From an uncultured Chloroflexia bacterium (GTDB lineage Bacteria; Chloroflexota; Dehalococcoidia; UBA2247; RBG-13-53-26): 64,000 nucleotides of DNA. Shown piece by piece: positions 4,348-62,438 of the stretch (positions are counted from its first letter, which is position 1; the number at the start of each line of letters is the position of its first letter). The stretch lies in NCBI GenBank assembly GCA_963720375.1, contig CAVRFM010000023.1:18179-82178 (forward strand), given 5' to 3'. The notes beneath the pieces are model-generated. The model ran no database searches, was not told the origin of the DNA, and was given only the letters and a program-made list of their open reading frames with translations. The position numbers and the translations under genes are program-made.

Positions 4348-4950
4348 ATGAAAGTCATAGGTCTCACCGGAAGCATCTGCAGCGGCAAGAGTACTGTTGC
4401 CGGTTTTCTGGCGAAGCTTGGTGCGGTGGTATTGAGTGCTGACGAGATTGGCCACGAAGCCTTCAGCCCCCATACCGAGACCTGGCAGCGGGTGGTCGAA
4501 GCCTTTGGCAGGGAGATTGTCACCGGCGGTGATGAGATTGACCGGAAGAGGCTGGGGGAGATTGTCTTCAATAACAGCCAGTCTCTGGAGCGGCTGAATC
4601 AGATAATGCATCCCGGCATGCACCGGGTAGCAGAGAAAAAGCTTGAGGAACTGAGACAGCAGGGGGTGGGAGTGGTTGTGCTGGAAGCACCGCTCCTGAT
4701 AGAAGCTAAATGGCTGGACTTGGTGGACGAGGTCTGGGTGGCTATGGCCAGTGAGTCCACCATGGTTCGCCGCTGCCAAAACCGCTCCGGGCTTCCTGAA
4801 TCTCAGGCTAAGGCGCGTATCCTGTCGCAACTTCCTCCGGGGGAGAAGACCAGGTATGCGGACGTAGTGATAGATACTGATGTCACCTTAGAAGAGGTAG
4901 AAGCCAGAGTGAAAGATCTGTGGGAGCAGAGGTTTTGCTCAAAAGGGTAG
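4348..4950 (+). CDS. coaE: dephospho-CoA kinase
   Basis: MKVIGLTGSICSGKST P-loop and overall CoaE architecture, 200 aa. Overlaps the downstream CoA-pyrophosphatase-type Nudix gene. Confidence 0.8.
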   Translation: MKVIGLTGSICSGKSTVAGFLAKLGAVVLSADEIGHEAFSPHTETWQRVVEAFGREIVTGGDEIDRKRLGEIVFNNSQSLERLNQIMHPGMHRVAEKKLEELRQQGVGVVVLEAPLLIEAKWLDLVDEVWVAMASESTMVRRCQNRSGLPESQAKARILSQLPPGEKTRYADVVIDTDVTLEEVEARVKDLWEQRFCSKG

Positions 4951-5537
4951 AAATAGACAAGGAAAAGATCAGGCAAGCGCTCTCCCAACGGGAGAAGATA
5001 GTTGAAAAGCCGGATGGTTTTACTCCAGCGGCTGTGCTCCTGCCGCTCTACGAGGCGGAGGGAAGCTACCACCTTGTTTTCACCAAGAGGACGGAGAAGG
5101 TTCATTATCATAAGGGGCAGATTTCGTTCCCCGGTGGAGGGCGGCACCCGGAGGATAGATCCCTCATGGATACGGCTCTCAGGGAAACCTGGGAGGAGAT
5201 AGGCCTCAACCCCGGGGATGCGGAGATCCTCGGTGAGCTGGATGACTTTGCCACCTATACCACTAATTTTGTCATATCCCCCTTCGTAGCGGCTATACCG
5301 TATCCTTATGAATTCCGAACAAGTCCGGACGAAGTAGAGGAGATAATCAAGGTGCCCCTCTCCGTGCTCCTGGACAAGAACAATTTCACTGAAGAGGAAT
5401 TGCTCCTGGGGAACAGGCCCATTATGCAGTATTTCTATCGCTATGGCGATCAAGTGATCTACGGGGCTACAGCCAGGATTGTGAAGCAATTCCTGGAGGT
5501 TGTGTTCACAAATGACAGGGCTGGCACTAGCACCTGA
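4920..5537 (+). CDS. Nudix hydrolase, CoA pyrophosphatase (NudL-like)
   Basis: GQISFPGGGRHPEDRSLMDTALRETWEEIGL Nudix box. Genomic coupling with coaE. Confidence 0.7.
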   Translation: MGAEVLLKRVEIDKEKIRQALSQREKIVEKPDGFTPAAVLLPLYEAEGSYHLVFTKRTEKVHYHKGQISFPGGGRHPEDRSLMDTALRETWEEIGLNPGDAEILGELDDFATYTTNFVISPFVAAIPYPYEFRTSPDEVEEIIKVPLSVLLDKNNFTEEELLLGNRPIMQYFYRYGDQVIYGATARIVKQFLEVVFTNDRAGTST

Positions 5538-5680
5538 ACATCCCACGTTCCATCACTTGAAGCCAACCTCTTCTGGCCTCAATCCTTTGTGGTAGAACTT
5601 CAGGCTGCTCCCCTTTGTATCCAGGCTGAAGTAGCATGATATAATCTCGCAGAGGATCTTCTCTAATTCACTAAACCCAA

Positions 5681-6196
5681 TTGCACAATGAAATGAAATA
5701 CAGAGTTGAACATTTCTTCTGTAGCCCATGCCTGCTAAAGAATGTGGATGAAATTAGCGAGGTCTACTCGTGTATAGATCGCATAATGTGGCATTCTGAG
5801 TTCGTGCTCGAGTTTAAGGGTAGGAGATATGAGCACCAGCAAGCATACAACAAAGCACTTGAGATAGAGTTCTCTAGCTATGGATGGAAGCCACACCCTC
5901 TGCTGGTTGACCAACCCAGGCTACTAGGAGACTTTCAGAAGAACAATGTATTCGTTGAGATTCAGTTTGGCAACAGTGCTACAGTCTACAGGGATTACTA
6001 TAAGTTCCACTACGGTTTGACGCACAACCTTCTGGCCCTAGCCGTGTTGATAGTCCCAACTACCCCAAAGAAATTCTTCCCCACTCGTGCTTCCAGTGTG
6101 AGTAACATGGCGGAATTTAACCTGGCCGACAGGTACTTTAAGCTGCTGCCTATCCCGGTGCCTATTCTTCTGATTGGACTACTACCAGAGAACTAA
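5681..6196 (+). CDS. putative PD-(D/E)XK nuclease, BglII/BamHI-like restriction-endonuclease fold (tentative)
   Basis: VFVEIQFGN resembles the E-x-Q/E-x-E catalytic motif of BglII/BamHI-family enzymes, recalled from memory and unverified. The gene sits in a lower-GC islet. Confidence 0.3.
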   Translation: MHNEMKYRVEHFFCSPCLLKNVDEISEVYSCIDRIMWHSEFVLEFKGRRYEHQQAYNKALEIEFSSYGWKPHPLLVDQPRLLGDFQKNNVFVEIQFGNSATVYRDYYKFHYGLTHNLLALAVLIVPTTPKKFFPTRASSVSNMAEFNLADRYFKLLPIPVPILLIGLLPEN

Positions 6197-6236
6197 AGTC
6201 TGAGGCATGGACTATACTTGCGAAGGGGGTTTCTAG

Positions 6237-6935
6237 TTGATGCAGCCTGGAGACATTTTGTCCTACCTTCAGATGTGCTCGCAGGAAGGAGTGAACCTCC
6301 AAAGGGGAATGAATTATCACCTGCGTGGTGGACTGAGCGTTATCCTCATGAGCTTGCGACCAAGAGCACCGTATGCAGACAGAATTGAGGATAATGGCCG
6401 AGTCTTGATCTATGAGGGCCATGACCTACCAAGGCAAAGAGGTAGTCTTGATCCTAAGATGGTTGACCAGCCAATGACGAATCCAAATCATACACTGACC
6501 CAGAATGGCTTGTTCTATCAAGCGGCGATGAGTTATAAGCAAAAAGGTGGTCAGCCCGAGCGTGTGAGAGTCTATGAGAAGGTGCGCCCTGGGATATGGG
6601 TCTACAATGGGTTGTTCAAGCTAGTTGATGCTTGGCAGGAGAAGGACAACTCTCGCAAGGTTTTCAAGTTCAGATTGCAAATGCTGGGTGATTCCGAAGA
6701 CTCGGTCACAACACAAGAGGACATCGATCACACTCGTCTCATTCCAGCATCAGTGAAGCTGCAGGTGTGGCAAAGGGATAAGGGGCGATGCGTCATCTGT
6801 GGAAGTAGCGACAACCTTCATTTTGACCACATAATCCCCTACTCAAGAGGAGGTTCTTCATTGGTGGCTGCTAACATTCGGCTACTATGTGCCAGGCACA
6901 ATCTGGCCAAGAGAGACAGGATAGAATACGCCTAG
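6237..6935 (+). CDS. HNH endonuclease with N-terminal putative DNA-recognition domain (Type IV-like candidate)
   Basis: C-terminal CVICGSSDNLHFDHIIPYSRGG...NIRLLCARHN is a clear HNH motif. An N-terminal domain of about 150 aa is of unknown type (possibly SRA/PUA-like). Confidence 0.45.
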   Translation: MMQPGDILSYLQMCSQEGVNLQRGMNYHLRGGLSVILMSLRPRAPYADRIEDNGRVLIYEGHDLPRQRGSLDPKMVDQPMTNPNHTLTQNGLFYQAAMSYKQKGGQPERVRVYEKVRPGIWVYNGLFKLVDAWQEKDNSRKVFKFRLQMLGDSEDSVTTQEDIDHTRLIPASVKLQVWQRDKGRCVICGSSDNLHFDHIIPYSRGGSSLVAANIRLLCARHNLAKRDRIEYA

Positions 6936-7030
6936 CATATACCTTATCCTCCCTCATAGTCGTCTAAGAATCCCCTTTGTATCCAAGTTTGGGTTGGGAT
7001 GGTACGCTGAGTAACTGATGTGGACTTAGC

Positions 7031-7768
7031 ATGGTAGCGAATCCGAAGGATGCAGCTACCCTGATCCTGTTGCGCAGTGCCAGGCGATCTGAATCAGGGA
7101 TCGAAGTCCTCATGCTGCAAAGGCATGCCAATAGCGCGTTTATGCCTGGTGCTTATGTCTTCCCTGGGGGCATGGTGGAAGTGGCGGACTATGCACCTGA
7201 GGTGGAGCGAATCTGCCATGGGCTGAGCTTCGAAAAGGCGCGGGGTATTATCAATAGTGCTTCCCCTCCTGAGAGGGCGCTCGGATTCTTCGTGGCCGCC
7301 ATCAGGGAGACGTTTGAGGAGGCGGGAATTCTTCTGGCTTGCAGGGAGTCCTCTGCATTGGCAGCTCTCGATGAGGAGCAGAAGGCGCGGTTTGCTGGGT
7401 ACCGTGATAAAGTACACGGTGATCCCGTTGCTTTTATGCCGATAATTGAGCAGGAGGGGCTGAAGCTGGCGACAGACAGCCTCTGCTACTTTGCCCACTG
7501 GATTACTCCGGAGGCGTCTCCTATTCGGTTTGACGCCCGTTTCTTTGTGGCCTCTGCCCCGCCGGATCAGGAGGCTTGTTCTGATGGATTGGAGACGACT
7601 GTGGCTAAGTGGATTTCACCTCAGGAGCTACTGGAAGAACACCGAAAAGGGGCGTTGTTTCTGCCTGTGCCCACGCTGTCCAGCGTGTCAACCCTGGCCC
7701 GGTTCTCCAGAGTTGACGAAGTGATTGCCTCGACGCGTGGTAAAGTGATACATGTTGGTCATGGATGA
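7031..7768 (+). CDS. Nudix-family hydrolase
   Basis: MPGAYVFPGGMVE...IRETFEEAGIL Nudix box. The 3' half lies inside the 395-bp direct repeat. Confidence 0.55.
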   Translation: MVANPKDAATLILLRSARRSESGIEVLMLQRHANSAFMPGAYVFPGGMVEVADYAPEVERICHGLSFEKARGIINSASPPERALGFFVAAIRETFEEAGILLACRESSALAALDEEQKARFAGYRDKVHGDPVAFMPIIEQEGLKLATDSLCYFAHWITPEASPIRFDARFFVASAPPDQEACSDGLETTVAKWISPQELLEEHRKGALFLPVPTLSSVSTLARFSRVDEVIASTRGKVIHVGHG

Positions 7769-7833
7769 CCCGGATTAGCCTTTGCTTGATTCTCCTTCAC
7801 CCGGCGCAGCCAATTCTCTACCCATGACACCAG
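7439..7833. repeat. 395-bp direct repeat, copy A (3' half of Nudix gene + 3' end of meaB)
   Basis: About 97% identical to 10914..11309. Contains about 50 nt matching the meaB C-terminal coding sequence although meaB itself lies 3.4 kb away. Confidence 0.85.
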
Positions 7834-7916: not shown

Positions 7917-8064
7917 CAACTTCAAAGATGAAGGGCAATTGTGGTATAGTATTGCCATTGCTGGTACACGGGCGACATGGATAATATGCGGGTATCTGTG
8001 CAACGCCGAAATCATCTATTTTATTTCTCTTTTGATGCGTACGCTTGGAATGGCAGACATCCCA
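7917..8064 (+). other. conserved noncoding element copy E1 (about 148 nt)
   Basis: About 75% identical to 10208..10350. Ends in the core TTGATGCGTACGCTTGGAATGGCAGACATCCC immediately upstream of the probable PHP gene start (TTG at 8087). No conserved reading frame between copies. Confidence 0.6.
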
Positions 8065-8755
8065 ATCATCTTGTCGAGATTTCATCTTGAAGATCGATCT
8101 CCACGTTCATACCAATCCGCTATCACCCGATAGCTTCATGAGCGCTGAGCAAGCCATCCAGACAGCGAAGGAGATTGGATTAGATGGTATTTGCTTCACT
8201 GAGCATGATCGCGCATGGCCATTGTCTGAAATCCGCCTCTTAAGAGAAAAGCACGACTTCCCCGTTTTCAGGGGTGTCGAGGTCATGCTGCGGGGCGGTA
8301 TTGAAATGCTCGTTTTCGGTTTGAACATCGACTTCACCAGTCTGCTCCAACTCAGAGATCTAAGGAATATGGTAATCGCGGCGAAGGGATTCATGGTCTA
8401 CGCACACCCCTTTCGTGGGCTCCCGGAACTGACAATCAGTGATTCAGATGCTGCATTTCAGATCACGCTTGGCAAGGTAGACATCACCAGCATTGATGCT
8501 ATGGAAGGTCGCAATGGGCGCCACAAAGACATTTTCAACCAACCAGCCCTGGAAATGGCTGCGAGGTGTAGCTTGAAGACCACAGGCGGAAGTGATGCCC
8601 ATGCAGTAGATGAAATCGGCACATGCGTCACGGTCTTTGAGAGCAACGTCACTTCGGATGCCGAACTACTGAACGAGTTGAGTGCCGGCAGATTTGCCAG
8701 CGCACAATTCAGGATCAGGGAGAGATGGACATGGCGGGAACCACAGATAGGATAG
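8045..8755 (+). CDS. PHP-domain metal-dependent phosphoesterase
   Basis: KIDLHVHT...GLDGICFTEHD PHP signature. The likely true start is TTG at 8087 (MKIDLHVHT). Confidence 0.65.
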   Translation: MEWQTSQSSCRDFILKIDLHVHTNPLSPDSFMSAEQAIQTAKEIGLDGICFTEHDRAWPLSEIRLLREKHDFPVFRGVEVMLRGGIEMLVFGLNIDFTSLLQLRDLRNMVIAAKGFMVYAHPFRGLPELTISDSDAAFQITLGKVDITSIDAMEGRNGRHKDIFNQPALEMAARCSLKTTGGSDAHAVDEIGTCVTVFESNVTSDAELLNELSAGRFASAQFRIRERWTWREPQIG

Positions 8756-8976
8756 GTACCCGCGCTGGGGGTCTTAATTGACAACCTGCGTCCCGATGGC
8801 GTAGCATTTTCTTTGAGCCTTGTTCATGAAATGGGACACCGCAGTTTCTCGGAAAGCAAGAAGGTAACCCTATTGAGCGGTGCCGTCGACAACGGGGAGC
8901 CCTGCCTTGATCCCCCAGCCTGAAGTATTGCGGATGTCCTACACAAATAAACGCAAATAGGAGGTGCGGAGCAAAA

Positions 8977-9900
8977 ATGGCAAAGAGACTGGATGGCAAA
9001 GTAGCGATAGTAACCGGTTCCGGCCGCGGAATCGGTGCCGCCCACGCAATGGCGCTGGCCATGCACGGAGCGAAGGTAGTCGTCAATGATCCCGGTGTCA
9101 ATCGCGACGGGACTGGTTCCTCCAACGTGGCTGACGAGACCGTAGCCGCTATCAAGAAGGCCGGCGGAGTAGCCATAGCCAACTATGACAGCGTGGCCAC
9201 TCCTGAAGGCGGCGAGGCCATCGTCAAGTGCGCGGTGGAGAAGCTCGGCGGAATCCACATACTGGTAAACAACGCAGGCTTCCTGCGGGACAAGACATGC
9301 TGGACCATGACTCCGGAAGAGTTTGACTTGGTGGTCAAAGTGCATCTCTACGGGCATTTCAATACCATCAGGGCAGCGGCACCGATCATGAGGCAGCAGA
9401 GGTGGGGAAGGATAATCAACACCTCCTCTGAGGCAGGTGCTATCGGTAATTTCGGGCAGATCAACTACTCGGCAGCCAAGGAGGGCATCGTCGGTCTGAC
9501 CAGGGTTGTCGGCAGGGAACTGGGCAAGTACGGCGTGACCTGCAATGCGATCAGGCCGCAGGCGGCAACGCGTATGACCATGACCGAGGATGTGCTGTCC
9601 AATATCGCGAAGATGACCGGGCTGAAAGACGCGAAAGAGGCCGAGAAAGCATTCATTGCCATGGCCGACCCCAAGTTTATTTCTCCTATCCTGATATTCC
9701 TGTGCTCAGAGGAAGCGGCAAACGTCAATGCGCGCGTATTCAATGTTGGCAGCGGCAAGTTCGGCCTCTACAACGAGCCGGAGGTCATTGCCTTTGTGGA
9801 GAAGCCTGGCCAGGTCTGGGACACTGAAGAGCTGATCAAGGAAATGGTCGCCAAAGTAACTGGCAAACTGGCTAACGTGTCCCCTCCGCAGCAGAAATAG
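8977..9900 (+). CDS. SDR-family NAD(P)-dependent oxidoreductase (3-hydroxyacyl-CoA dehydrogenase-like)
   Basis: TGSGRGIG cofactor motif, NNAG, and the YSAAK catalytic YxxxK. 307 aa with a C-terminal extension. Confidence 0.7.
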   Translation: MAKRLDGKVAIVTGSGRGIGAAHAMALAMHGAKVVVNDPGVNRDGTGSSNVADETVAAIKKAGGVAIANYDSVATPEGGEAIVKCAVEKLGGIHILVNNAGFLRDKTCWTMTPEEFDLVVKVHLYGHFNTIRAAAPIMRQQRWGRIINTSSEAGAIGNFGQINYSAAKEGIVGLTRVVGRELGKYGVTCNAIRPQAATRMTMTEDVLSNIAKMTGLKDAKEAEKAFIAMADPKFISPILIFLCSEEAANVNARVFNVGSGKFGLYNEPEVIAFVEKPGQVWDTEELIKEMVAKVTGKLANVSPPQQK

Positions 9901-10207: not shown

Positions 10208-10350
10208 GCAACTTCAAACCTCAAGGCCAACTGTAGTATAGTGCTGCCATTCTTGGTTCACGGACGACGCGAAGAGACTGCCGGTGTCTGTGCGACGCCG
10301 AAATGATTCAGGTAGATCTTGATGCATAAGCATGAAAGGGCAGACATCCC
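10208..10350 (+). other. conserved noncoding element copy E2
   Basis: Aligns with E1. The core is TTGATGCATAAGCATGAAAGGGCAGACATCCC. No plus-strand gene follows directly. Confidence 0.55.
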
Positions 10351-10827: not shown

Positions 10828-10883
10828 GCGGCCTCCTCCTTTTGGATAATCACGCAGACATTATACACTTACAGTTTAAGGTT

Positions 10884-10915
10884 TTGATGCGTACGCATGG
10901 AATGGGAGACATCCC
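10884..10915 (+). other. conserved element core copy E3 (32 nt), perfect palindrome ATGCGTACGCAT
   Basis: TTGATGCGTACGCATGGAATGGGAGACATCCC abuts the start of repeat copy B. Confidence 0.5.
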
Positions 10916-11309
10916 GATAATTGTGCAGGAGGGGCTGAAACTGGCGACAGACAGCCTCTGCTACTTTGCCCACTGGATTACTCTGGAGACGTCTCCTATT
11001 CGGTTTGACGCCCGTTTCTTTGTGGCCTCTGCCCCGCCGGATCAGGAGGCTTGTTCTGATGGATTGGAGACGACTGTGGCTAAGTGGATTTCACCTCAGG
11101 AGCTACTGGAAGAACACCGAAAAGGGGCGTTGTTTCTGCCTGTGCCCACGCTATCCAGCGTGTCAACCCTGGCCCGGTTCTCCAGAGTTGACGAAGTGAT
11201 TGCCTCGACGCGTGGTAAAGTGATACATGTTGGTCACGGGTGACCAGGATTAGCCCTTTGCTTGATTATCCTTCACCCGGCGCAGCCAATTCTCCACCCA
11301 TGACACCAG
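10914..11309. repeat. 395-bp direct repeat, copy B
   Basis: About 97% identical to 7439..7833. Here the meaB 3' end is the genuine one and the Nudix portion is a truncated fragment. Confidence 0.85.
10927..11243 (+). pseudogene. truncated duplicate of the C-terminal ~105 codons of the Nudix gene at 7031..7768
   Basis: The encoded peptide is near-identical to the C-terminus of the 7031 product, but lacks the N-terminal half and a proper start. Confidence 0.7.
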
Positions 11310-17241: not shown

Positions 17242-18606
17242 GTGAGTGTTGCGGAAAGTGCCGAGATAAAGATACCAGCCGGAAGGGAGTATCAGTTGCC
17301 GACCGACCCTGATCATCTGTGGGATGGGTTGAAGGATATCGGGTTGGGGATAAGATGGGTAGCTGAGGTAAAAAAGGCCGACATGCAAATTGAGCTGTCG
17401 GGGCCAAAGTGGGAATACAAGAGTTACACCATCCTTGAGATCGTAGAAGAACCGGGGAAGGTCAGGAACGGCATAGTTAACCTTGTTGGCCCGGATATAC
17501 ATGAAGTCCCGCCTGGGAGTTCCTTCCCTATGGCATGGGACATCAAGGTCTATGGCCATGGGATAACCCAGAGACACCGGGAATACATTGAAAGACAAAT
17601 GGCCATGTCATTACATGGTATAGAGGGCTATATGGCCTTTGGCTCATTCCAGGCCCCCTGGATGCGCTTCAGCAAGGCTATCGTTGGACGACTCACCTTT
17701 GCGAAGCTGTGCCAGGTCATACATGCCTACGTCAAGACCGTTGTCCCGCAGGTGGAGGCGATGGAGTTCCGCTGGATCATTGCATCGGAGGAAGTTGGTG
17801 GCCTCAAGCTGATTGAGCCACTTTACAGGTTGGGTATCCAGAGGCTGAAGGCGCAGGAGCTGTCGGTCTCTCTTGAAGATGCTGATGTGGATATCTTCTA
17901 TGGCTGCACTATCTGCAAGTCGCTGGCCCCCAACCACGTGTGCGTCATTACACCGAGCCAGATACCGTACTGTGGCATCCTCTCCTATAATGGAGCGCAG
18001 GTGACGGTGGAGCTTGATCCGGAGGGCTATATCTTCCGGATGAGCAAAGGCGAGTGCAAAAATGAACAAATGGGCAGCTACACCGGTGTGGATGAGGCAG
18101 TCTACGAGAGGTCTAACCATCAGATAAAGCATGTGAATGTCTTCAGTGCCATAAAGTATCCTACTACCAACTGCGGTTGCTTCGAAGGGGCGGCATTCTA
18201 CATTCCTGAAGTAGATGGCCTTGGCCTGGCTATAAGACGGTACATTGGGGTAACTCCGTTGGGCGTAAAGTTCTCGCGTCTGGCCGGCATGATTTCGGGC
18301 GGCTCTCAGAATCATGGAAATAAGGGCGTATCCATGCGGTCCATGCAAAGCAAGACCTTTCTCAAGGGCGATGGAGGTTGGAGCAGGATAGTGTGGATGC
18401 CCGCCGATTTGAAGAAGGAAGTCGCGGAATACATTCCCGAAGAGATCTACGATAAGATTGCCACTGAGCAGGATACCGTTGATCCTATCGAGCTGAAAGA
18501 GTTTCTAAAGAAGAAGAAGCATCCGATAGTAGAGAAGTATTGGAAGAATGGCGAACCACAGCCACTGAAAGTACCACTCCCCGGAGCGAAGTGGCCCGAC
18601 GAATAG
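17242..18606 (+). CDS. cdhC: acetyl-CoA synthase catalytic subunit, archaeal short type (CdhC/AcsB-like), copy 1
   Basis: 454 aa. Contains the A-cluster Cys-Gly-Cys motif (NCGCFE) plus upstream Cys residues (CTICKS...CGIL). Confidence 0.75.
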   Translation: MSVAESAEIKIPAGREYQLPTDPDHLWDGLKDIGLGIRWVAEVKKADMQIELSGPKWEYKSYTILEIVEEPGKVRNGIVNLVGPDIHEVPPGSSFPMAWDIKVYGHGITQRHREYIERQMAMSLHGIEGYMAFGSFQAPWMRFSKAIVGRLTFAKLCQVIHAYVKTVVPQVEAMEFRWIIASEEVGGLKLIEPLYRLGIQRLKAQELSVSLEDADVDIFYGCTICKSLAPNHVCVITPSQIPYCGILSYNGAQVTVELDPEGYIFRMSKGECKNEQMGSYTGVDEAVYERSNHQIKHVNVFSAIKYPTTNCGCFEGAAFYIPEVDGLGLAIRRYIGVTPLGVKFSRLAGMISGGSQNHGNKGVSMRSMQSKTFLKGDGGWSRIVWMPADLKKEVAEYIPEEIYDKIATEQDTVDPIELKEFLKKKKHPIVEKYWKNGEPQPLKVPLPGAKWPDE

Positions 18607-18622
18607 CCTTTGGAGGTGGACT

Positions 18623-18838
18623 ATGGGAGAGAAGACCTGCGGTGTTTGTCAGAAGAAGGTAGCGGAGTTTGCATGTAGTGTGTGTGGCGTACCTCTGTGT
18701 GCTGAATGTGTTCGAGAGGTAGCCATAGAAAACCCTGGTCAGAGAGTTCTGGGTGTATTAACCAGCCCTTTGAAGTCCGGAATGAAGAAGCAAAAAGTAT
18801 GTGAGAAATGCATGAAGGAAGTGGACTTTGTTGAGTAG
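18623..18838 (+). CDS. Cys4x2 zinc-ribbon small protein, copy 1
   Basis: 71 aa with four CxxC pairs (CGVCQ, CSVCG, CAEC, CEKC). A paralogue sits at the same position in module 2. Confidence 0.6.
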   Translation: MGEKTCGVCQKKVAEFACSVCGVPLCAECVREVAIENPGQRVLGVLTSPLKSGMKKQKVCEKCMKEVDFVE

Positions 18839-19120
18839 CGCGGCTCCTTCTTGCTGTTGTTTTGGTGACCCTGTAATTTACAGCAAGTCACTTGATTGCC
18901 GAGAGGCTTTGACTTATTTGCTGGTGTATTCACTTTCTCAAGGTTCTTAAAGACGAAATTCAGTGGTATTTCGAACACGACATTGAAGAAGATCTCTACA
19001 CACTCTGCAGTGAATACCGGGAAGGTCTGCCAGGTGAATAGAGGATATATGTGTTCTGAATCGGTCGTCAATTGTTTGTTCTGCTGACTCAATTAAGCGA
19101 TATCTGGGAGGGAGAAAGCT

Positions 19121-21622
19121 GTGAAAGATAAGAGAATTGCTCATGTCGGATCTCTGGAGGTCGATATCAGCACAGTCGTGCGTGACCCGCGCGGTCATGA
19201 AGACGAAATTGTCGAGATAATGGAGAACGACTTTGTTGAGGGCCGCCATAGTAATTTTGGAGGATGGATAACTCTACTGCCCGATGCGGCAGACATAGCA
19301 GAACTGGATTATGCTCTGTTGAGCAGGTATCCGCCGTTATACACTCAGCCCAATGGTGTTTGCACTGACTGTGGCCTGGGCCCCTGCAACTTGAAAGAGG
19401 GTCAGGGAAAGTGCGGACTGGATATGGAGGCTTTCCAGGGCAGGTTAAGCTTACGGAAAGCATGCCGGGGTTGTATGACTCAACTAGTGGCCAGCCGACA
19501 ATTGCTGAACTACGCTCTCAAACGCTGGCCGGAGGATACGCCTGTCAGCATGGGTGAGATTCTCGGTATCTCAGATCATGCTCCTGCCATAAGCGTGTTA
19601 TCCGGGATACACGTAAAGACTTTAAGAGATCTTAACAGAGCGCTTTCTTATGGAGAGGAACAACTGGCCAAGCTCTTTCAGGCGAGTTATTCGGGCACTG
19701 GAACGGCGGTGAATTTTGAAAGCATGGTGCTGCATGCCGGGTCTGTTTTGCTCCTCACCATGGGTGTGGCTGAGCTGCTGAAGATCTCCTGCTATGGCTT
19801 TATCAGTGCTGCCAATCAGCCACTGGAGGCGATCGAGCAGTTTCCTCCTGCCACTTTAAATGGTGGGTGGGCATCCATGGAGAGTGGGAAGCCTGTCATA
19901 GCCTTTGTTGGGGATGACTTCCTGCCGGCATGGTGTGCCATCGATCATATGAAGCAGAACGGTCTGACAGAAAAGATTGAGATATGCGGCATGGGTTCAG
20001 CCGGTGATGACATAGTGAGATTCTACGATAGGTGCCGGATCGTGGCCCCGATGGTGAGGGCGCCAAAGGCGATCAGAAATGGCCTGTTTGATGTGGTTGT
20101 GGTCAGTCCAGGATGTATTCCCCTGGACCTTCTATCCCAGGCGGAGCGTGTCGATAGCAAGGTTATATGGGTTGGTCACAATGGAATCAGCAATCTAGCG
20201 GATAGCACGGATGAGCCATCAGACAAGATAGTAGAGGCCTTACTTCATGGAGGAAAGGCAGTCTGGATCAGGGACGTAGAGAAGGCTGGTGAGGTGGCGG
20301 TGAAGTTGGCACAGAAGGTCAAGAGAAGTGGTAATTACATTATCTCTGACGATGAAGCAATAAAACAGGCAAAGGGCCATAAGCAGGATTGTGATATTTG
20401 TTCCAGTGTCTGTCCCAATAATCTGCCTGTATCCAGGGCGGTCAGAGAATTGGGTAAGGGTGACTGGAAGGGTTTCTTCGAGGTGGAGAAAGGATGCAAT
20501 TTCTGCGGCAAATGTGATGAGGCCTGCCCCAGCAAGGTTCAACTGCGCGATATCATTGTGGCTGCCGAGAGAAAGCAGGCCGGCACCGATAAATTCATAA
20601 TGAGGCCAGGCAGGGGGCCGATATCAATAACTGAGCTGCTGCAATCTGCTTTCGCAGTAGGCTGGGGCAGCATACCAGCCATGGTGACCATCTTTGGTTG
20701 CGGCGATGCCAAGAAGGAGGAGATCGCCTGGATAGCCAGTGAGTTGCTTAACGGCGGTTGCATGGTCTTTGTGGCAGGGTGTGCCGGAGCTGAAGTAGCT
20801 CGATCTTTCAGCCAGGCGAAGAAGAAGTACCTCTTTCAAGAATATGCTGGCACTTGTGCCTCGAGAAATATTGTGAATTGCGGCAGTTGCTCTGCTATTT
20901 GCCATGCTGTCCCGATGTATCTCATGCTGCGGCCTTCTGGTGGCATTCCTCTGTATGGCAATCTACCACCGCTGGGAGATTCCATCAGTCTTGGTGGTGC
21001 TCAGTCTGTGATCATGTGGGGGGCATTGCCGGACAGAATGTATGCGGTGGCAGCTGCCTGGGCTCGGCTTGGATCAACGGTCATTGTAGGGCCTGCCTCA
21101 TCCTCAGGATGGAACCGCTACCTGGTTGGTGATAGATATGATCGCAGCAAGTGGTGGGTCTATCATGGTGAGACGGGTAAGAGGCGTGAGGTTGAACCGG
21201 TAAAGGAACACTGCATTGTGCCCGTGGAAACTAAAGAGGAAGCGTTGACTATGCTGGCAAGGTCTGTGTTGAATGTAAAGGACTACAGAGAGAGCCGAGC
21301 TACTCACCTGGAGGTGATGATTGACTACTTTGAGCGCTTCTATCAGCAGTTGCCGGAGGATTGGCCTCTCTTTGTGAGGTCAGATTTCGAACTGCCGCCG
21401 AGATACAGACGACGCATGGTCAATCTCCTGGGATCCGAGTATGGATGGGAGACTGAAGGTGTGAAGGTTAAGAGAGCAAAGAATAGAGATGGCAAGCTAA
21501 TGACCATGTCTGAGTTCGCAGCTAACTATGGGATGGAGCAAGGGATATATAGCACAAGGCTTCGCACCCAGTTACCCCTACGTCTCAGGGGTGTGGCTGA
21601 TGAAGGTAAGTCTAAAAAGTAA
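19121..21622 (+). CDS. cdhA: CO dehydrogenase catalytic subunit, archaeal CdhA-like, copy 1
   Basis: 833 aa. N-terminal CTDCGLGPC...GKCG Cys cluster. Two internal ferredoxin motifs (CDICSSVCPNN; CNFCGKCDEACPS) are typical of archaeal CdhA. Adjacent to cdhB and cdhC. Confidence 0.65.
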   Translation: MKDKRIAHVGSLEVDISTVVRDPRGHEDEIVEIMENDFVEGRHSNFGGWITLLPDAADIAELDYALLSRYPPLYTQPNGVCTDCGLGPCNLKEGQGKCGLDMEAFQGRLSLRKACRGCMTQLVASRQLLNYALKRWPEDTPVSMGEILGISDHAPAISVLSGIHVKTLRDLNRALSYGEEQLAKLFQASYSGTGTAVNFESMVLHAGSVLLLTMGVAELLKISCYGFISAANQPLEAIEQFPPATLNGGWASMESGKPVIAFVGDDFLPAWCAIDHMKQNGLTEKIEICGMGSAGDDIVRFYDRCRIVAPMVRAPKAIRNGLFDVVVVSPGCIPLDLLSQAERVDSKVIWVGHNGISNLADSTDEPSDKIVEALLHGGKAVWIRDVEKAGEVAVKLAQKVKRSGNYIISDDEAIKQAKGHKQDCDICSSVCPNNLPVSRAVRELGKGDWKGFFEVEKGCNFCGKCDEACPSKVQLRDIIVAAERKQAGTDKFIMRPGRGPISITELLQSAFAVGWGSIPAMVTIFGCGDAKKEEIAWIASELLNGGCMVFVAGCAGAEVARSFSQAKKKYLFQEYAGTCASRNIVNCGSCSAICHAVPMYLMLRPSGGIPLYGNLPPLGDSISLGGAQSVIMWGALPDRMYAVAAAWARLGSTVIVGPASSSGWNRYLVGDRYDRSKWWVYHGETGKRREVEPVKEHCIVPVETKEEALTMLARSVLNVKDYRESRATHLEVMIDYFERFYQQLPEDWPLFVRSDFELPPRYRRRMVNLLGSEYGWETEGVKVKRAKNRDGKLMTMSEFAANYGMEQGIYSTRLRTQLPLRLRGVADEGKSKK

Positions 21623-21700: not shown

Positions 21701-23101
21701 GTGTTGTGTAGGTTCCACGAAAGGGGTATACAAATGGCTATTCCAGAGGAAGAAGCAGTATCCAAACTCCCACCGGGAAGGATATTTCAGTTGCCGACAG
21801 ACCTTGATCACCTTTGGGACGGGCTGGATGACGTCGGGCTCGGTCTAAGGTGGTTGAGTGAGGTGAAGAAAGCTGACATGCACATTGAGTTGGGTGGGCC
21901 TAAGTGGGACTATAAGATGTTCTCCATCTTCTACATTGAGGAAGATCCGGAAAAGGTCAGGGATGGAGAAGTCAAGTTGATCGGCCCGGACGTTCCAGAA
22001 GTGGCAGCAGGCACCTCATTACCCGGCGGGTTTACGATAAGGATCTATGGTAAACAATTGACTCAAGCACATCAGGGCTATGTATCCAGACAGATAGGAA
22101 CTGCGCTGCAAGGCATAGAAGGATTCATGCTCTTTGGAACGCCGGATGCTCTGTGGATAAGGATAAGCAAAGACGTGGCGAACAGGTTGACCTTTGCCAA
22201 GATATCTCAGTTTTGCTATGCCACCGCGAGAACGCTGATCCCTCAGGTAGATGCCATAGCATTCTTCTGGGCAGTAGGAGCTCCTGAAGTCGGTGGTGTT
22301 GAGATGATAAACCCGCTGGTTACCTGGGCTAAGGAGAAGTTTAAGATCATAAGTGCCAAGGAGCTCTACGATGATGAAGACGTAGATACCTTCTATGGTT
22401 GCACGATCTGCAAATCCCTGGCGCCAAATCATGCCTGTGTCCTTACGCCAAGCGCGCTGCCTTACTGCGGCATCATCGGCTATGATTCGGCTAAGGTAAC
22501 AGCAGAAATAGACCCGGAAGGGTATGTTTTTACTATTCCTAAAGGTGAATGCTTGGATCAGGAGAAAGGGCATTACACGGGAGTCGACCAGGCCATATGG
22601 GAGAAATGCAATCATCTGGTAAAGCGCGTGAACATCTACAGCAGCATAAACTATCCGACTACCAATTGTGGGTGCTTTGAGGCAGCATCTTTCTACATAC
22701 CGGATGTTGATGGTATCGGTCTGGCTATGCGGCGCTATACCAAGATGACACCGCTCGGTGTCAAGTTTTCCACTTTGGCAGGTATGATCTCCGGTGGGGC
22801 TCAGAATCATGGGTTCAAGGGATTGTCGATTGCCGGTATGGCGAGTAAGAACTTCCTGCGAGGAGATGGCGGTTGGAACCGGGTAGTCTGGATGCCTGCG
22901 GATTTGAAGAGGGATATCGCGGATGTGATTCCAGAGGAGGTCTATGACAAGATTGTCACTGAGGAAGAGACTATTGATCCTCTGGAGCTCAAGGAGTTGC
23001 TCCGCAAGAAAGGACACCCAATAGTCAAGCTGTTCTGGAAGAATGGCGAACCCCAGCCATTAAAGTTGCCGCTTCCCGGTGAAGACTGGCCGGATAACTA
23101 A
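21701..23101 (+). CDS. cdhC: acetyl-CoA synthase catalytic subunit (CdhC-like), copy 2
   Basis: 466 aa, about 60% identical to copy 1. NCGCFE A-cluster motif retained. Confidence 0.75.
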   Translation: MLCRFHERGIQMAIPEEEAVSKLPPGRIFQLPTDLDHLWDGLDDVGLGLRWLSEVKKADMHIELGGPKWDYKMFSIFYIEEDPEKVRDGEVKLIGPDVPEVAAGTSLPGGFTIRIYGKQLTQAHQGYVSRQIGTALQGIEGFMLFGTPDALWIRISKDVANRLTFAKISQFCYATARTLIPQVDAIAFFWAVGAPEVGGVEMINPLVTWAKEKFKIISAKELYDDEDVDTFYGCTICKSLAPNHACVLTPSALPYCGIIGYDSAKVTAEIDPEGYVFTIPKGECLDQEKGHYTGVDQAIWEKCNHLVKRVNIYSSINYPTTNCGCFEAASFYIPDVDGIGLAMRRYTKMTPLGVKFSTLAGMISGGAQNHGFKGLSIAGMASKNFLRGDGGWNRVVWMPADLKRDIADVIPEEVYDKIVTEEETIDPLELKELLRKKGHPIVKLFWKNGEPQPLKLPLPGEDWPDN

Positions 23102-23342
23102 ATTTAGATTTGGGGGAATGTTTATGGAAAAGATGTGTGATCTATGCCAAAAAAGGGTAGCGCCGTGGACATGCCATGAATGTGGTATCGCTTTGTGTGA
23201 CGAATGTTCCCGTGAGGTTCGTATTGATTCTACCAGACCTGGCCAGAGAATGATGGGCCGGATCACCAGCCCCATGAAGTCAGGGGTGCAGAAACTAAAG
23301 GTCTGCGAGAAGTGCTTCAAGGAAAAGGAGTTTCTCGGATAA
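23079..23342 (+). CDS. Cys4x2 zinc-ribbon small protein, copy 2
   Basis: 87 aa. CDLCQ, CHECG, CDEC, CEKC. Overlaps the cdhC-2 stop. Confidence 0.55.
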   Translation: MKTGRITKFRFGGMFMEKMCDLCQKRVAPWTCHECGIALCDECSREVRIDSTRPGQRMMGRITSPMKSGVQKLKVCEKCFKEKEFLG

Positions 23343-23365
23343 GAGGTACCCTTTTCTGGTGATGG

Positions 23366-25871
23366 TTGCTGAGGAGAGAAGTAATGGAGAAAAAGAGGAT
23401 TGCCCATGTAGGGCCTCACAAAGTTGACATAAGTGAAGTGGTGCGTGATCCCCGTGGTATTGAGGATATAGTCACGGAGATACTGGAGAAAGACTTTGTT
23501 GAGAGCCGCTATTCACAATTTGGGGCGTGGTTGAATATCTTGCCCGACGCGGCGGATATCGGTGATTGGGATCGCACTCTGCTGGAAAGATATGTGCCGC
23601 TATATACTCAGCCTCAAGGCACGTGCATTGATTGTGAGTTGGGTCCTTGCAGATCTCAAGGTAAGCAAAGGTAAATGCGGATTAGAGATGGATTCGTTTC
23701 AAGGCAGGCTGAGTTTGCGCAAGGCCTGCCGTGGCTGTATGGGCCAGATGGTAGCTACTCGTCATTTGTTGAACTATGCATTGAAGTTATGGGATGAAAG
23801 CAAGGCTGTCAGCATGGGTGAGCTCTTGACCATGTCGGATGCCTGCCCTCCTGTAGGCACTTTGAGCGGCATCTATGTGAAAACCCTCAAGGACTTGAAC
23901 AGGGTGCTCTCATATGGAGAGGCGCAGTTGGCTAAGCTGATGTCTGCGAGCTATTCAGGCACCGGAGCAGTGGCGGATTTTGAGAGCATGGTGATGCATG
24001 CTGGTTCTGTTCTGCTTCTGGCTATGGGAGTGTCTGAGATGATTAAGGTCGCTTGCTTCGGCTTTACGTCAGCCGCTAACCATAAGATTGATGAACTGGA
24101 GAATTTCCCGCCGGCCAACGTGGTTGGAGGATGGCCGTCCATAAAGGAAGGTAAGCCGGTAATTGCCTTTGTCGGCGATGATTTTCTGCCGGCATGGTGT
24201 GCCATAGAGTATCTCAAGCAGAATGAATTGTTGGACAAAGTCGAGATATGCGGTATTGGCCCTGCAGGTGATGACGTGGTGCGCTTCTATGACAAGTGCC
24301 GCATAATCGCTCCGATGGTGAAGGCGGGCAAAGCTATCAGAAATGGTGTCTTCGATGTGGTTGTAGCTGCGAACGGATGTATTCCTTTGGATATGCTATC
24401 TGAAGCGGCAAGGGTAAAGAGCAAGTTCATATGGGTAGGAGCGCAGGGAGTTGGCAATCTGGTCGATAAGACTGATGAACCTCTGGACAAGATAGTGAGT
24501 GCTCTGGTTGATGGTGAAGAGGCAGCTTGGATTAGAGATGTTGAGAAGGCTGGCCAGGTAGCAGTCAAGGTAGTCCAGCAAGTGAAGAGAACACGGCAAT
24601 TTATTCTAAGTGATGAGTTGGCAGTTGCGCAGGCTAAGAAGTGTAAGGATGATTGTGATCTTTGCTCTAGTGCTTGCCCCAATAGCTTGCCATTATCAAA
24701 GGCGGTCAGACTGTTACGCGGCGGTAACTGGGATGGTTTCTCAGAGGTGGAGAGAGGGTGCTATTTCTGTGGAAAGTGTGAAGAGGCTTGCTCGGCTGGG
24801 GTGAGGCTGCGTGACATAATAGTAGCGACTGAAAGGAAACAAGCGAAGAAGGACAAATTCATTATGAGAGCGGGAAGAGGTCCTCTCCCCCTCACTGAGA
24901 TACTGCAGTCGGCTTTTTCCATGGTCTGGGGTAATGCTCCCGGTATCGTGGTGATAGCGGGTTGTGGTGATGCTTCCCGCGATGATATCGGATGGCTGGC
25001 TCAAGAATTAACCAGACGAAACTGCATTGTCTTTGTGGCTGGATGCGCCGGTGCTGAGATTGCCCGCAACTACAGCGAAAGGAAGGGTAAGTATATTTTT
25101 GAGCAGTACCTGGCTTCTATTGAGCCACGGTCTCTCATCAACTGCGGTGGCTGCACCGCAATTTCCCTGGCGAACAACATGTATATGTACTCGCGTGCTG
25201 CCGGAGGCATTCCTCTCTATGGGGGCATACCAGAGGTAGGCGAAGGGTCACTTTATACTACCTTCACGTTGCTTGTGTGGGGTGCTCTGCCTGACAGGAT
25301 GTATGCAGCAGCAGCAGCATATGCCCGTCTTGGGATAAGGGTTGTAGTGGGTCCGGCTTCGGGTTGGACTTGGGGTCGCTATTTGCCTGGCAATAGGTAT
25401 GATCGGAGCAAATGGTGGGTCTATCATGGAGACAATGGTAGTAAGAGGGAAACCGAACCTGTTCCGGAGCATTTTATTATCCCCGTGGAAACCAAAGAGG
25501 AAGCACTGACCATGATGCCCCACACTTTCTTCAGTACATCTGAGATGAGGGAGGGTCGGGCTGCTCGTCTTGACCTGCTTATTGAGTTGTATCGGCTGTT
25601 CTATGGCCAACTTCCCGATGATTGGGATTTGTTGGTGAGGTCCCATTTGGATATCCCGACTAGGCACAGGATCAGGTTGGTTAAGCTACTTCGGGATGAA
25701 TATGGTTGGGAAGGCGATGGATTGAAGATTACCAAGGCCAGGAATCGTGATGGGAAACTGTTAACCCTGTCGGAATTCAATACCAGCTACGGTATGGAGC
25801 TGGGAAGATACCACTGCAGACTGAAGAGACTATTGCCAAAGAGTGTGAGAGATAGAGAAAAGGGCAGTTAG
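23366..25871 (+). CDS. cdhA: CdhA-like CO dehydrogenase subunit, copy 2, with apparent +1 frameshift at ~23651
   Basis: ORFs 23366..23674 and 23562..25871 together reconstitute a CdhA-1 homologue. The frames join directly after CELGPC (TGC-A-GATCTC). Confidence 0.6.
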
Positions 25872-58781: not shown

Positions 58782-59170
58782 TTATGGCGAAGCGTCATGC
58801 AGGTTCAGTGATTTGAGACGGGAGTGGCTTGTGGTGGGCAGGTTTGATGGCTTGGACAAGTGATAGAATTCGCTGTCTGCCAGTATGCTGACTTAGTTGG
58901 GAGAGTAGGCAACCTCAACTCATCACCAAAAATCATGCTTGCGGTATTGTGCTTTGCCTAAGCCCCCCTTTGTATCCAGGCTGGTGTTGACACCCTTTGC
59001 CCCACCATGCTATTGTTCGAGCCGATCTGCACCGTTGAGCAAAGTGGATTGTGGCCCGCCAACGCCGCACTATTCGGAGTTGGTACCCTGGGGAGAACTC
59101 GGGGCTACCCTCATCTCCTATTGGAGGAACTATCTCTTCCTGTTTCCGTCGAGACAGGTGATGGAGGGGA

Positions 59171-62344: not shown

Positions 62345-62438
62345 GGAGGGATCGCATAGTGGTCTAGTGCGGGCGCCTGCTAAGCGCTTACAGGGGCTAA
62401 AACCTGTGTCGTGGGTTCGAATCCCACTCCCTCCGCCA
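62345..62438 (+). tRNA. tRNA-Ser (anticodon GCU), class II with long variable arm, CCA encoded
   Basis: Hand-folded. Acceptor GGAGGGA/TCCCTCC. Anticodon stem GGCGC/GCGCT, loop CTGCTAA. Variable arm ACAGG-GGCTAAAA-CCTGT. T-arm GTGGG-TTCGAAT-CCCAC. Ends in GCCA. Confidence 0.85.

Follow-up and report, generated by a model that had tools for sequence, protein, structure and literature searches.

Large serine recombinases (LSRs) are recognised by simple palindromic sites and by a 2-bp crossover that is common to both recombination partners. We know of no LSR that recombines attP with attR-type sites without the help of a directionality factor. SCC elements integrate in rlmH (orfX), and their ccrAB genes lie internal to the element rather than spanning the attachment site. 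The closest known system to the locus described here is that of the ssrA-specific genomic islands (ssrA-GIs) of Dehalococcoides with their recombinase DsiB. This CcrB-like serine recombinase is encoded on islands that occur in tandem, some of them without an integration module (McMurdie et al. 2011, PMC3146451). The 3' end of dsiB always overlaps attL and the stop codon lies outside the island; a complete gene, the authors suggested, may exist only in the circular form or where an adjacent island provides the 3' fragment (PMC3146451). The part of DsiB beyond attL was described as divergent and probably non-functional, and cis-mobilisable islands were discussed for Dehalococcoides (PMC3146451). 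An attachment site inside an ORF is also found in the integration-dependent immunity of mycobacteriophages, where the integrated and free forms of the protein differ in their C-terminus and a C-terminal tag decides the fate of the protein (Broussard & Hatfull 2013, PMC3694055). In that case the split gene is a repressor, the enzyme is a tyrosine integrase and the tag is a degradation signal (PMC3694055).

Here we describe a repeated element, E, that occurs in three copies (E1, E2 and E3) in a window of 64,000 nucleotides, this being the whole stretch of Dehalococcoidia DNA that was analysed. We consider it highly probable that E is what remains of integrative elements mobilised by a CcrB-like LSR of Chloroflexota, and not a regulatory RNA.

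Copies of E, the putative attachment site and the recombination junctions

The E1 and E2 copies (7917-8064 and 10208-10350) share 72.96% identity over 159 nt (blastn, E = 3e-21), while E3, which consists of the core only, is 90% identical to E1 over 40 nt. The repeat as proposed in the first-pass annotation is therefore real, and three further observations in that annotation were borne out: the palindrome ATGCGTACGCAT is present within E3, E1 lies just 5' of the PHP gene (its core ends 23 nt ahead of the TTG at 8087), and E3 abuts a 398-nt repeat of a Nudix 3' part (10911-11309 versus 7436-7833, 98%). The core consensus written there was one base short and matches nothing; the correct consensus is TTGATGCRTAMGCWTGRAAKGGSAGACATCCC. 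This 32-nt core is found three times in the window (8032-8063, 10319-10350 and 10884-10915), where none is expected on the basis of 100 shuffles.

The tail of E is kept over ~115 nt, which is far beyond what a half-site requires, and in E3 it is replaced by SnoaL-side DNA left of 10882. An extra half-site-like block is present in the tail (E1 8000-8011, E2 10286-10297), and also in the tails of L086, L087 and L092. On the recombinase strand this block reads G[CG]ACAGACAYCSGC and resembles a further half-site, ACARACATC-GG, with the crossover ~55 nt away; it may serve as an accessory binding site or else represent an older junction. Pairing of the block (E1 8000-8011) with the core was not above that in shuffles, and one decayed copy had an apparent compensatory change.

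When one genome per species was scanned, three other Chloroflexota MAGs were found to contain the core. Searching with a core profile revealed same-orientation arrays between unrelated genes in L084 (n = 3) and L086 (n = 3) and a single copy in L085. Loci added later contributed a further array of this kind in L087 (n = 3), and more copies in L088 and L091-L093. The copy set used below comprises 18 copies (16 distinct) from seven Chloroflexota contigs. The viral contigs that were searched for E contained no copy.

Read by eye, the site is an imperfect palindrome, CAGACATC-CC-GATGTTTG, of which the core makes up one arm. The whole site can be recognised as an imperfect palindrome because complete copies, as found in L088, L092, L093, L086 and L084, run on into the inverted arm GATGTTTGTTCAATGG. 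In the orientation of the window + strand the complete site reads ...CATGGAATGGCAGACATC-CC-GATGTTTGTTCAATGG..., and its minus strand encodes ...VLTIEQTS/GCLPFHAYAS-xx-stop. The core is described here as the predicted P-arm half of an LSR-type attachment site, located inside the recombinase's own 3' end. A full miniature element is present in L085 downstream of dnaN, where one TPR gene is enclosed by attL (...ACAAACATC-GG-CATGATGATGTG) and attR (GGTATCATCATC-GG-GATGTCT). The palindromic attB reconstructed by eye from these two ends is GGTATCATCATC-GG-CATGATGATGTG, and in another genome (L094) a real LSR gene ends at this same attB. The apparent natural target of this recombinase family is close to the replication origin, immediately 3' of dnaN (L085 ~4800-5660, L094 1400-1560), and this dnaN-side position recalls the origin-flanking plasticity regions of Dehalococcoides.

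Table 1. Features of the E locus, in window coordinates.
Feature	Position	Strand	Description
E1, putative attR-type relic	7917..8063	-	3' flank of the lost LSR gene (7917-8020) plus its last codons and stop (8021-8062)
E1 last codons and stop	8021-8062	-	GCLPFQAYASKEK, stop
E1 P-arm half-site	8054-8061		CAGACATC, ending in crossover CC 8062-8063
E2, second putative attR-type relic	10208..10350	-	anatomy as E1; crossover CC 10349-10350
E2 relic codons	10308-10349	-	GCLPFHAYASRST, stop
E3, putative core-only relic	10876..10915	-	GCLPFHAYASKP, stop; crossover CC 10914-10915 fused to Nudix gene interior
PHP	8087-8755	+	TTG start
SDR	8977-9900	+	PHP-SDR pair 8087..9900
Ancestral 23-nt PHP leader, B' side of E1 junction	8064..8086	+	AATCATCTTGTCGAGATTTCATC
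Promoter-like TTCAAA-18-TATAGT (with TG) in E1 tail	7921..7950	+	consensus match only; reads towards crossover/PHP
Left junction of strain-variable segment	5534..5556	+	CCTGAACATC-CC-ACGTTCCATCAC; CC 5544-5545
Strain-variable segment	5546..8063		in window, missing from L004 (97.5% identical)
E2-E3 segment	10351..10881		SnoaL-like gene on minus strand
Pseudo-attB inside intact Nudix2	7432..7452	+	TTTTATG-CC-GATAATTGAGCA; CC 7439-7440
Nudix2' fragment and flank, B' side of E3 junction	10916..11309	+	98% identical to 7441-7833

Within the window, E1, E2 and E3 are each a recombinant junction at which the site breaks off precisely at its central CC and unrelated DNA follows (Table 1). The partner is the PHP promoter for E1, the interior of a Nudix gene for E3 and a strain-variable segment for E2. 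For E1, the junction CAGACATC-CC-AATCATCT has as its counterpart AATGATA-CC-AATCATCT in the PHP orthologues. The E3 junction GAGACATC-CC-GATAATTG is matched by TTTTATG-CC-GATAATTG in the intact Nudix2 gene, where the pseudo-attB corresponds to GAGACATC-CC-GATAATTGTGCA at E3, and the E2 junction CAGACATC-CC-AACCTCAG is matched in L087 by ...-CC-CATGTTGCTTCAAGG, a relic of the other arm. What had been taken for microhomology between E3 and the Nudix sequence is the crossover dinucleotide CC of the recombinase site, and the E3-Nudix2' junction is shared with L087. The suggestion that E might be the recombinogenic end of an inserted segment was essentially right, a P-arm half-site being fused at the CC to target DNA, and it had come with no mechanism.

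Comparison with closely related strains revealed two polymorphisms at these junctions. In L004 (contig Ga0031655_10028713), window position 5545 is joined straight to 8057. The 2.5-kb variable segment that is present in the window carries a BglII-like endonuclease gene, an SRA-HNH gene, the full Nudix2 gene and E1, and is bounded by ACATC-CC on either side. Its left junction lies directly 3' of the stop codon of the first Nudix gene, the window reading CCTGAACATC-CC-ACGTTCC and the L004 recombinant CCTGAACATC-CC-AATCATCT. The DNA to the right of E2 also varies between strains: after the E2 CC, the genes of L087 are different ones over 5.2 kb, with an additional copy of E among them. L087 and the window have both flanks in common (95% and 93%) and differ in cargo. 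On these comparisons E marks the points of gene-block swaps between closely related Dehalococcoidia strains, events that an LSR would have catalysed.

Could such junctions have arisen by microhomology-mediated deletion or duplication that is independent of any recombinase, with E merely serving as a promoting repeat? The L004-versus-window difference is indeed flanked in the window by an 8-bp direct repeat, ACATCCCA, and one difference boundary (10881/10882) is not at a CC. We nevertheless regard this explanation as very unlikely, since at least eight independent junctions from several genomes are all on the same central CC, which is the centre of a palindrome within a serine-recombinase gene, and since the target halves are similar to the half-site (with GAT.../AAT... 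following the CC). The break at CC/GG was found at E1, E2, E3, window 5544-5545, L004, L085, L094, three L087 copies, the Nudix2 site and the PHP orthologue site.

Several side observations concern the same region. The L004 contig ends at window 10348, where the E2 core finishes and the crossover of E2 is located; this fits E2 as a variable junction, assemblers stopping where the DNA of a population differs after a shared repeat. The cargo of the variable blocks looks defence-like, with the BglII-like restriction endonuclease and SRA-HNH nuclease genes at 5681-6935 of the window and, at 3741-4574 of L087, a gene whose protein resembles GIY-YIG proteins by eye. The full Nudix2 gene of the variable segment spans 7031-7768, and its 98%-identical 3' fragment to the right of E3 spans 10916-11243. 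Because the copies are 98% identical but the E3 junction itself is old (it is common to L087 at 93%), a later conversion or duplication of Nudix2 is suggested. Lastly, a 25-nt direct repeat (CCCCTTTGTATCCARG..) is found in intergenic DNA at 5610-5634, 6972-6996 and 58965-58989, the first two being in the variable segment.

A minus-strand coding signature and its link to a serine recombinase

The way in which the core varies between copies follows a reading frame. Across the 18 copies (16 distinct), one minus-strand frame places 41 of the 51 differences from the consensus at third codon positions, and the variable positions are all three bases apart. Translated in this frame, the differences amount to 38 synonymous versus 9 non-synonymous codon changes, compared with 3-19 synonymous versus 36-57 non-synonymous in the remaining five frames. 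When two decayed copies were left out, 35 of 40 differences were at position 3 (binomial P = 2e-12, a value that overstates independence because the copies share ancestry). Every copy reads [S/L/P]GCLPF(H/Q)AY(A/G)S on the minus strand, followed by 2-4 residues and a stop. The first-pass annotation had stated that the copies have no shared reading frame, which is wrong for the core, where all of them share the minus-strand GCLPF(H/Q)AYAS and stop. This pattern points to purifying selection on codons that span the attachment site, which is the one notable point of the case. The 'palindrome' of the core is simply the codons Ala-Tyr-Ala.

The coding signature bears directly on the idea that E acts from the + strand as a cis-regulatory RNA or operator, a riboswitch or a small RNA with an ATGC-N4-GCAT hairpin as its core. 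This idea draws on the promoter-like TTCAAA-18-TATAGT that E1 and E2 both carry ~110 nt ahead of their core, and on the position of E1 directly 5' of PHP. The three-base periodicity of the variation, however, is on the opposite strand. Rfam searches of the window and seven related loci returned nothing relevant at either gathering or permissive (E <= 10) thresholds, and the folding energies of E1 and E2 were ordinary (z = -0.6 and -1.1), as was their two-sequence consensus fold. Contrary to the earlier impression, ATGC...GCAT pairing is not preserved: E1 reads GCTT, and among 18 copies zero compensatory changes were found, with 11 of these copies lacking the inner pair. Paired cells of the palindrome amount to 76.7% in the 18 copies versus 76.6% in shuffles, and the palindrome shows no covariation. 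Moreover, nothing follows E2, a gene fragment follows E3, and PHP orthologues are without E. Altogether, a role of E as a regulatory RNA is extremely improbable.

The identity of the encoded peptide was traced by protein searches. A word-indexed profile search of 5.8e9 protein clusters found the motif solely in six tiny ORFs, some of which extend it to VLTIEQTSGCLPFHAYAS. An exhaustive HMMER search of 1.84e9 proteins with the tiny ORFs then led to longer proteins that match at their C-terminus, for example with ends such as ...DKKDAYTYLGL.VKATPEGADIKGYLDPKVLTIEQTSGCLPFHAY; the longer matches end ...DKKDAYTYLGL.VKATPEGADIKGYLDPKVLT..QTSGC.... Protein P0143 has the Pfam domain Zn_ribbon_recom (recombinase zinc ribbon), and its 96 homologues contain Recombinase, Zn_ribbon_recom and Resolvase domains (PF07508, PF13408, PF00239) and bear the annotation site-specific recombinase, Chloroflexota. 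Among NCBIfam models CcrB matches best, with a score of 121 bits that is far below the equivalog cut-off of 900 bits, and among solved structures the SPbeta serine recombinase (PDB name: resolvase homolog YokA) is nearest. The recombinase homologues agree as far as ...QT(S/W) and diverge after it, and this is the same point at which the truncated E copies start. We conclude from these matches that the GCLPFHAYAS peptide is the C-terminus of a CcrB-like LSR. An LSR gene or pseudogene body was not found by tblastn anywhere in the 64-kb window, and a full-length LSR with both element ends was not recovered, the homologues all being <=420 aa. Since the window is without a recombinase gene, its E copies are either relics or sites that are used in trans.

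Synonymous-type variation implies a real ORF, and tandem islands with repeated gene ends are common. The core could thus also be viewed as the duplicated 3' end of a host gene that is used as attB, in the style of ssrA or tRNA islands. Such an origin is highly improbable: the motif is confined to the six tiny ORFs among the 5.8e9 clusters, the exhaustive search links it solely to LSR C-termini, and no intact host gene adjoins any of the arrays. A tmRNA or tRNA target was likewise rejected, the window having no tmRNA (ARAGORN, Rfam) and its sole tRNA, tRNA-Ser at 62345-62438, being ~50 kb from the E copies.

Equally hard to sustain is the view that E is an integron attC site, which would be folded as a single strand and recombined by a tyrosine integron integrase. 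This view would account for same-orientation repeats that part gene blocks, for a strain-variable block at the first position of an array, and for an array start with an identity of only 7 nt (ACATCCC). The RYYYAAC/GTTRRRY boxes are absent, however, the GTT that follows the core in complete copies being part of recombinase codons, and long-range pairing between the core and upstream DNA was not above that in shuffles. The window has no IntI gene; an IntI-family gene beside such arrays, or hairpin covariation specific to one strand, was not seen either. The core itself terminates a serine-recombinase ORF.

Four other candidates were tried and rejected. For a dif/Xer site, GC skew shows no switch at 8-11 kb, and one related copy adjoins dnaN. 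When the core was considered as a sigma-54 or ECF promoter, a conserved downstream element could not be seen by eye. A TnpB/omega-RNA right end is contradicted both by the strand of the coding signal and by the end at which it is found, and the E1-versus-E2 mismatches are, by eye, not adenine-specific as for the template/variable repeat of a diversity-generating retroelement.

The PHP-SDR gene pair, its ancestral promoter and a candidate promoter in E1

The PHP-SDR gene pair is conserved in other Dehalococcoidia, and we regard it as chromosomal DNA that lies between two relic junctions and is separate from E. Nearly all PHP homologues have a length of 222 aa and an N-terminus of MKIDLHVHT, which places the start of the gene at the TTG at 8087. 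A look-up of the exact PHP protein returned no record. At ~20 orthologous PHP loci the gene has its own conserved promoter, CCTTTRTTGTTnCCATTCGCATCYTATACAATGATACCARTCATCTTG (TTGTTG-17-TACAAT). The PHP orthologues read TATACAATGATA-CC-AATCATC, and their homology to the window starts only at CCAATCATC, exactly at the end of E1. The E1 event would accordingly be expected to have removed PHP's own -35/-10, the ancestral promoter. The TTCAAA-18-TATAGT motif of E1, which is found also in E2 at 10213-10242, matches 9 of 12 sigma-70 positions in both copies, and a regional scan returned 6 such sites where 3.4 were expected. This promoter-like motif may now drive PHP-SDR. As a side observation, the PHP leader (8064-8089; loci L001-L023) is 23-25 nt long, conserved at the nucleotide level and without a Shine-Dalgarno-like sequence, and the TTG start is conserved.

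The weakest alternative, that E is simply the PHP promoter or 5'UTR duplicated along with the gene (the scenario named at the outset as one that would refute a conserved element), has in its favour that E1 is directly upstream of PHP and is refuted by the different promoter of the ~20 orthologous PHP-SDR loci, by the presence of PHP without E1 in L004, and by the other E copies, which precede unrelated genes or none.

Elsewhere in the window, two tandem paralogous gene pairs for an archaeal-type CO dehydrogenase/acetyl-CoA synthase are present at 17242-21622 and 21701-25871 (454/466 aa and 833/769 aa). The DNA of these pairs is ~73% identical in places (repeat families D2 and D3), and the second large gene appears to be split or has an uncertain start (23366-23674 plus 23562-25871).

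Proposed mechanism and comparison with known systems

According to the mechanism that we propose, attP would lie within the recombinase gene's own 3' end, and integration would cut it at the central CC. The body of the recombinase gene would then be left at one end of the element (attL), while its last 11 codons plus ~115 nt of 3' flank would end up at the opposite end, where they would be joined to the target (attR). All three copies, E1 at the PHP promoter, E2 beside the strain-variable segment and E3 inside Nudix2, would be attR-type junctions. Blocks that no longer encode an LSR would have been moved by one acting in trans, as with the cis-mobilisable islands discussed for Dehalococcoides. 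Because the recombinase genes are gone from the locus, the sites mark the insertion, excision and replacement of gene blocks and probably continue to permit these events in trans.

A more speculative extension of this mechanism, which we put forward tentatively and consider rather doubtful, is that the attachment site is inside the recombinase ORF deliberately. The last 11 residues (GCLPFHAYAS..) would then be under purifying selection, and the protein would include them only when the element is an excised circle or is beside another E copy. The two recombinase forms that result from the integration state could constitute a built-in switch that acts on the activity, stability or directionality of the enzyme. 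Landing pads that keep an incoming recombinase gene intact would be provided by orphan E copies, and the outcome would be integron-like arrays built by a serine recombinase.

With E as a relic of LSR-mobilised elements, what looked like a conserved noncoding element becomes a precise map of where a Dehalococcoidia genome has recombined, and chromosomal DNA (PHP-SDR) can be told from imported cargo (the restriction-like genes, Nudix2 and SnoaL). The mostly synonymous variation past the crossover represents sequence evidence for the idea, raised for DsiB in 2011, that a recombinase gene is completed across its attachment site. The analysis also yields a candidate attP and attB for a new CcrB-like recombinase from an uncultured lineage, and such enzymes are of practical interest for genome engineering.

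Arrays of E resemble those of integrons in that direct repeats of ~60-150 nt part strain-variable blocks and recombination takes place at a fixed short core. They differ in having a serine instead of a tyrosine enzyme, a duplex palindrome, no R/L boxes, and a site that is part of the recombinase ORF. Likeness to SCCmec and its CcrB consists in CcrB being the best NCBIfam match, at a score (121 versus 900 bits) far below the CcrB equivalog cut-off, and in site-specific islands with varied cargo that may be in tandem. The integration-dependent immunity of mycobacteriophages is a functional analogue, with the difference that the gene split at our locus is that of the serine recombinase itself, with an 11-residue tail. 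The ssrA-GIs share with the E locus the class Dehalococcoidia and a CcrB-like LSR gene that overlaps attL at its 3' end, the enzyme being likened to DsiB by description. Their target is different, since the window is without a tmRNA gene and without the 20-bp ssrA repeat, and the six-gene module of the ssrA-GIs (dsiB, dsiA, recF-like, parB-like, mom-like ...) was not noticed in the ORF lists of the window. In the system described here the natural attB is downstream of dnaN and several pseudo-sites are used. The difference from DsiB extends to the protein, as the 10 codons past the crossover are conserved at the amino-acid level here.
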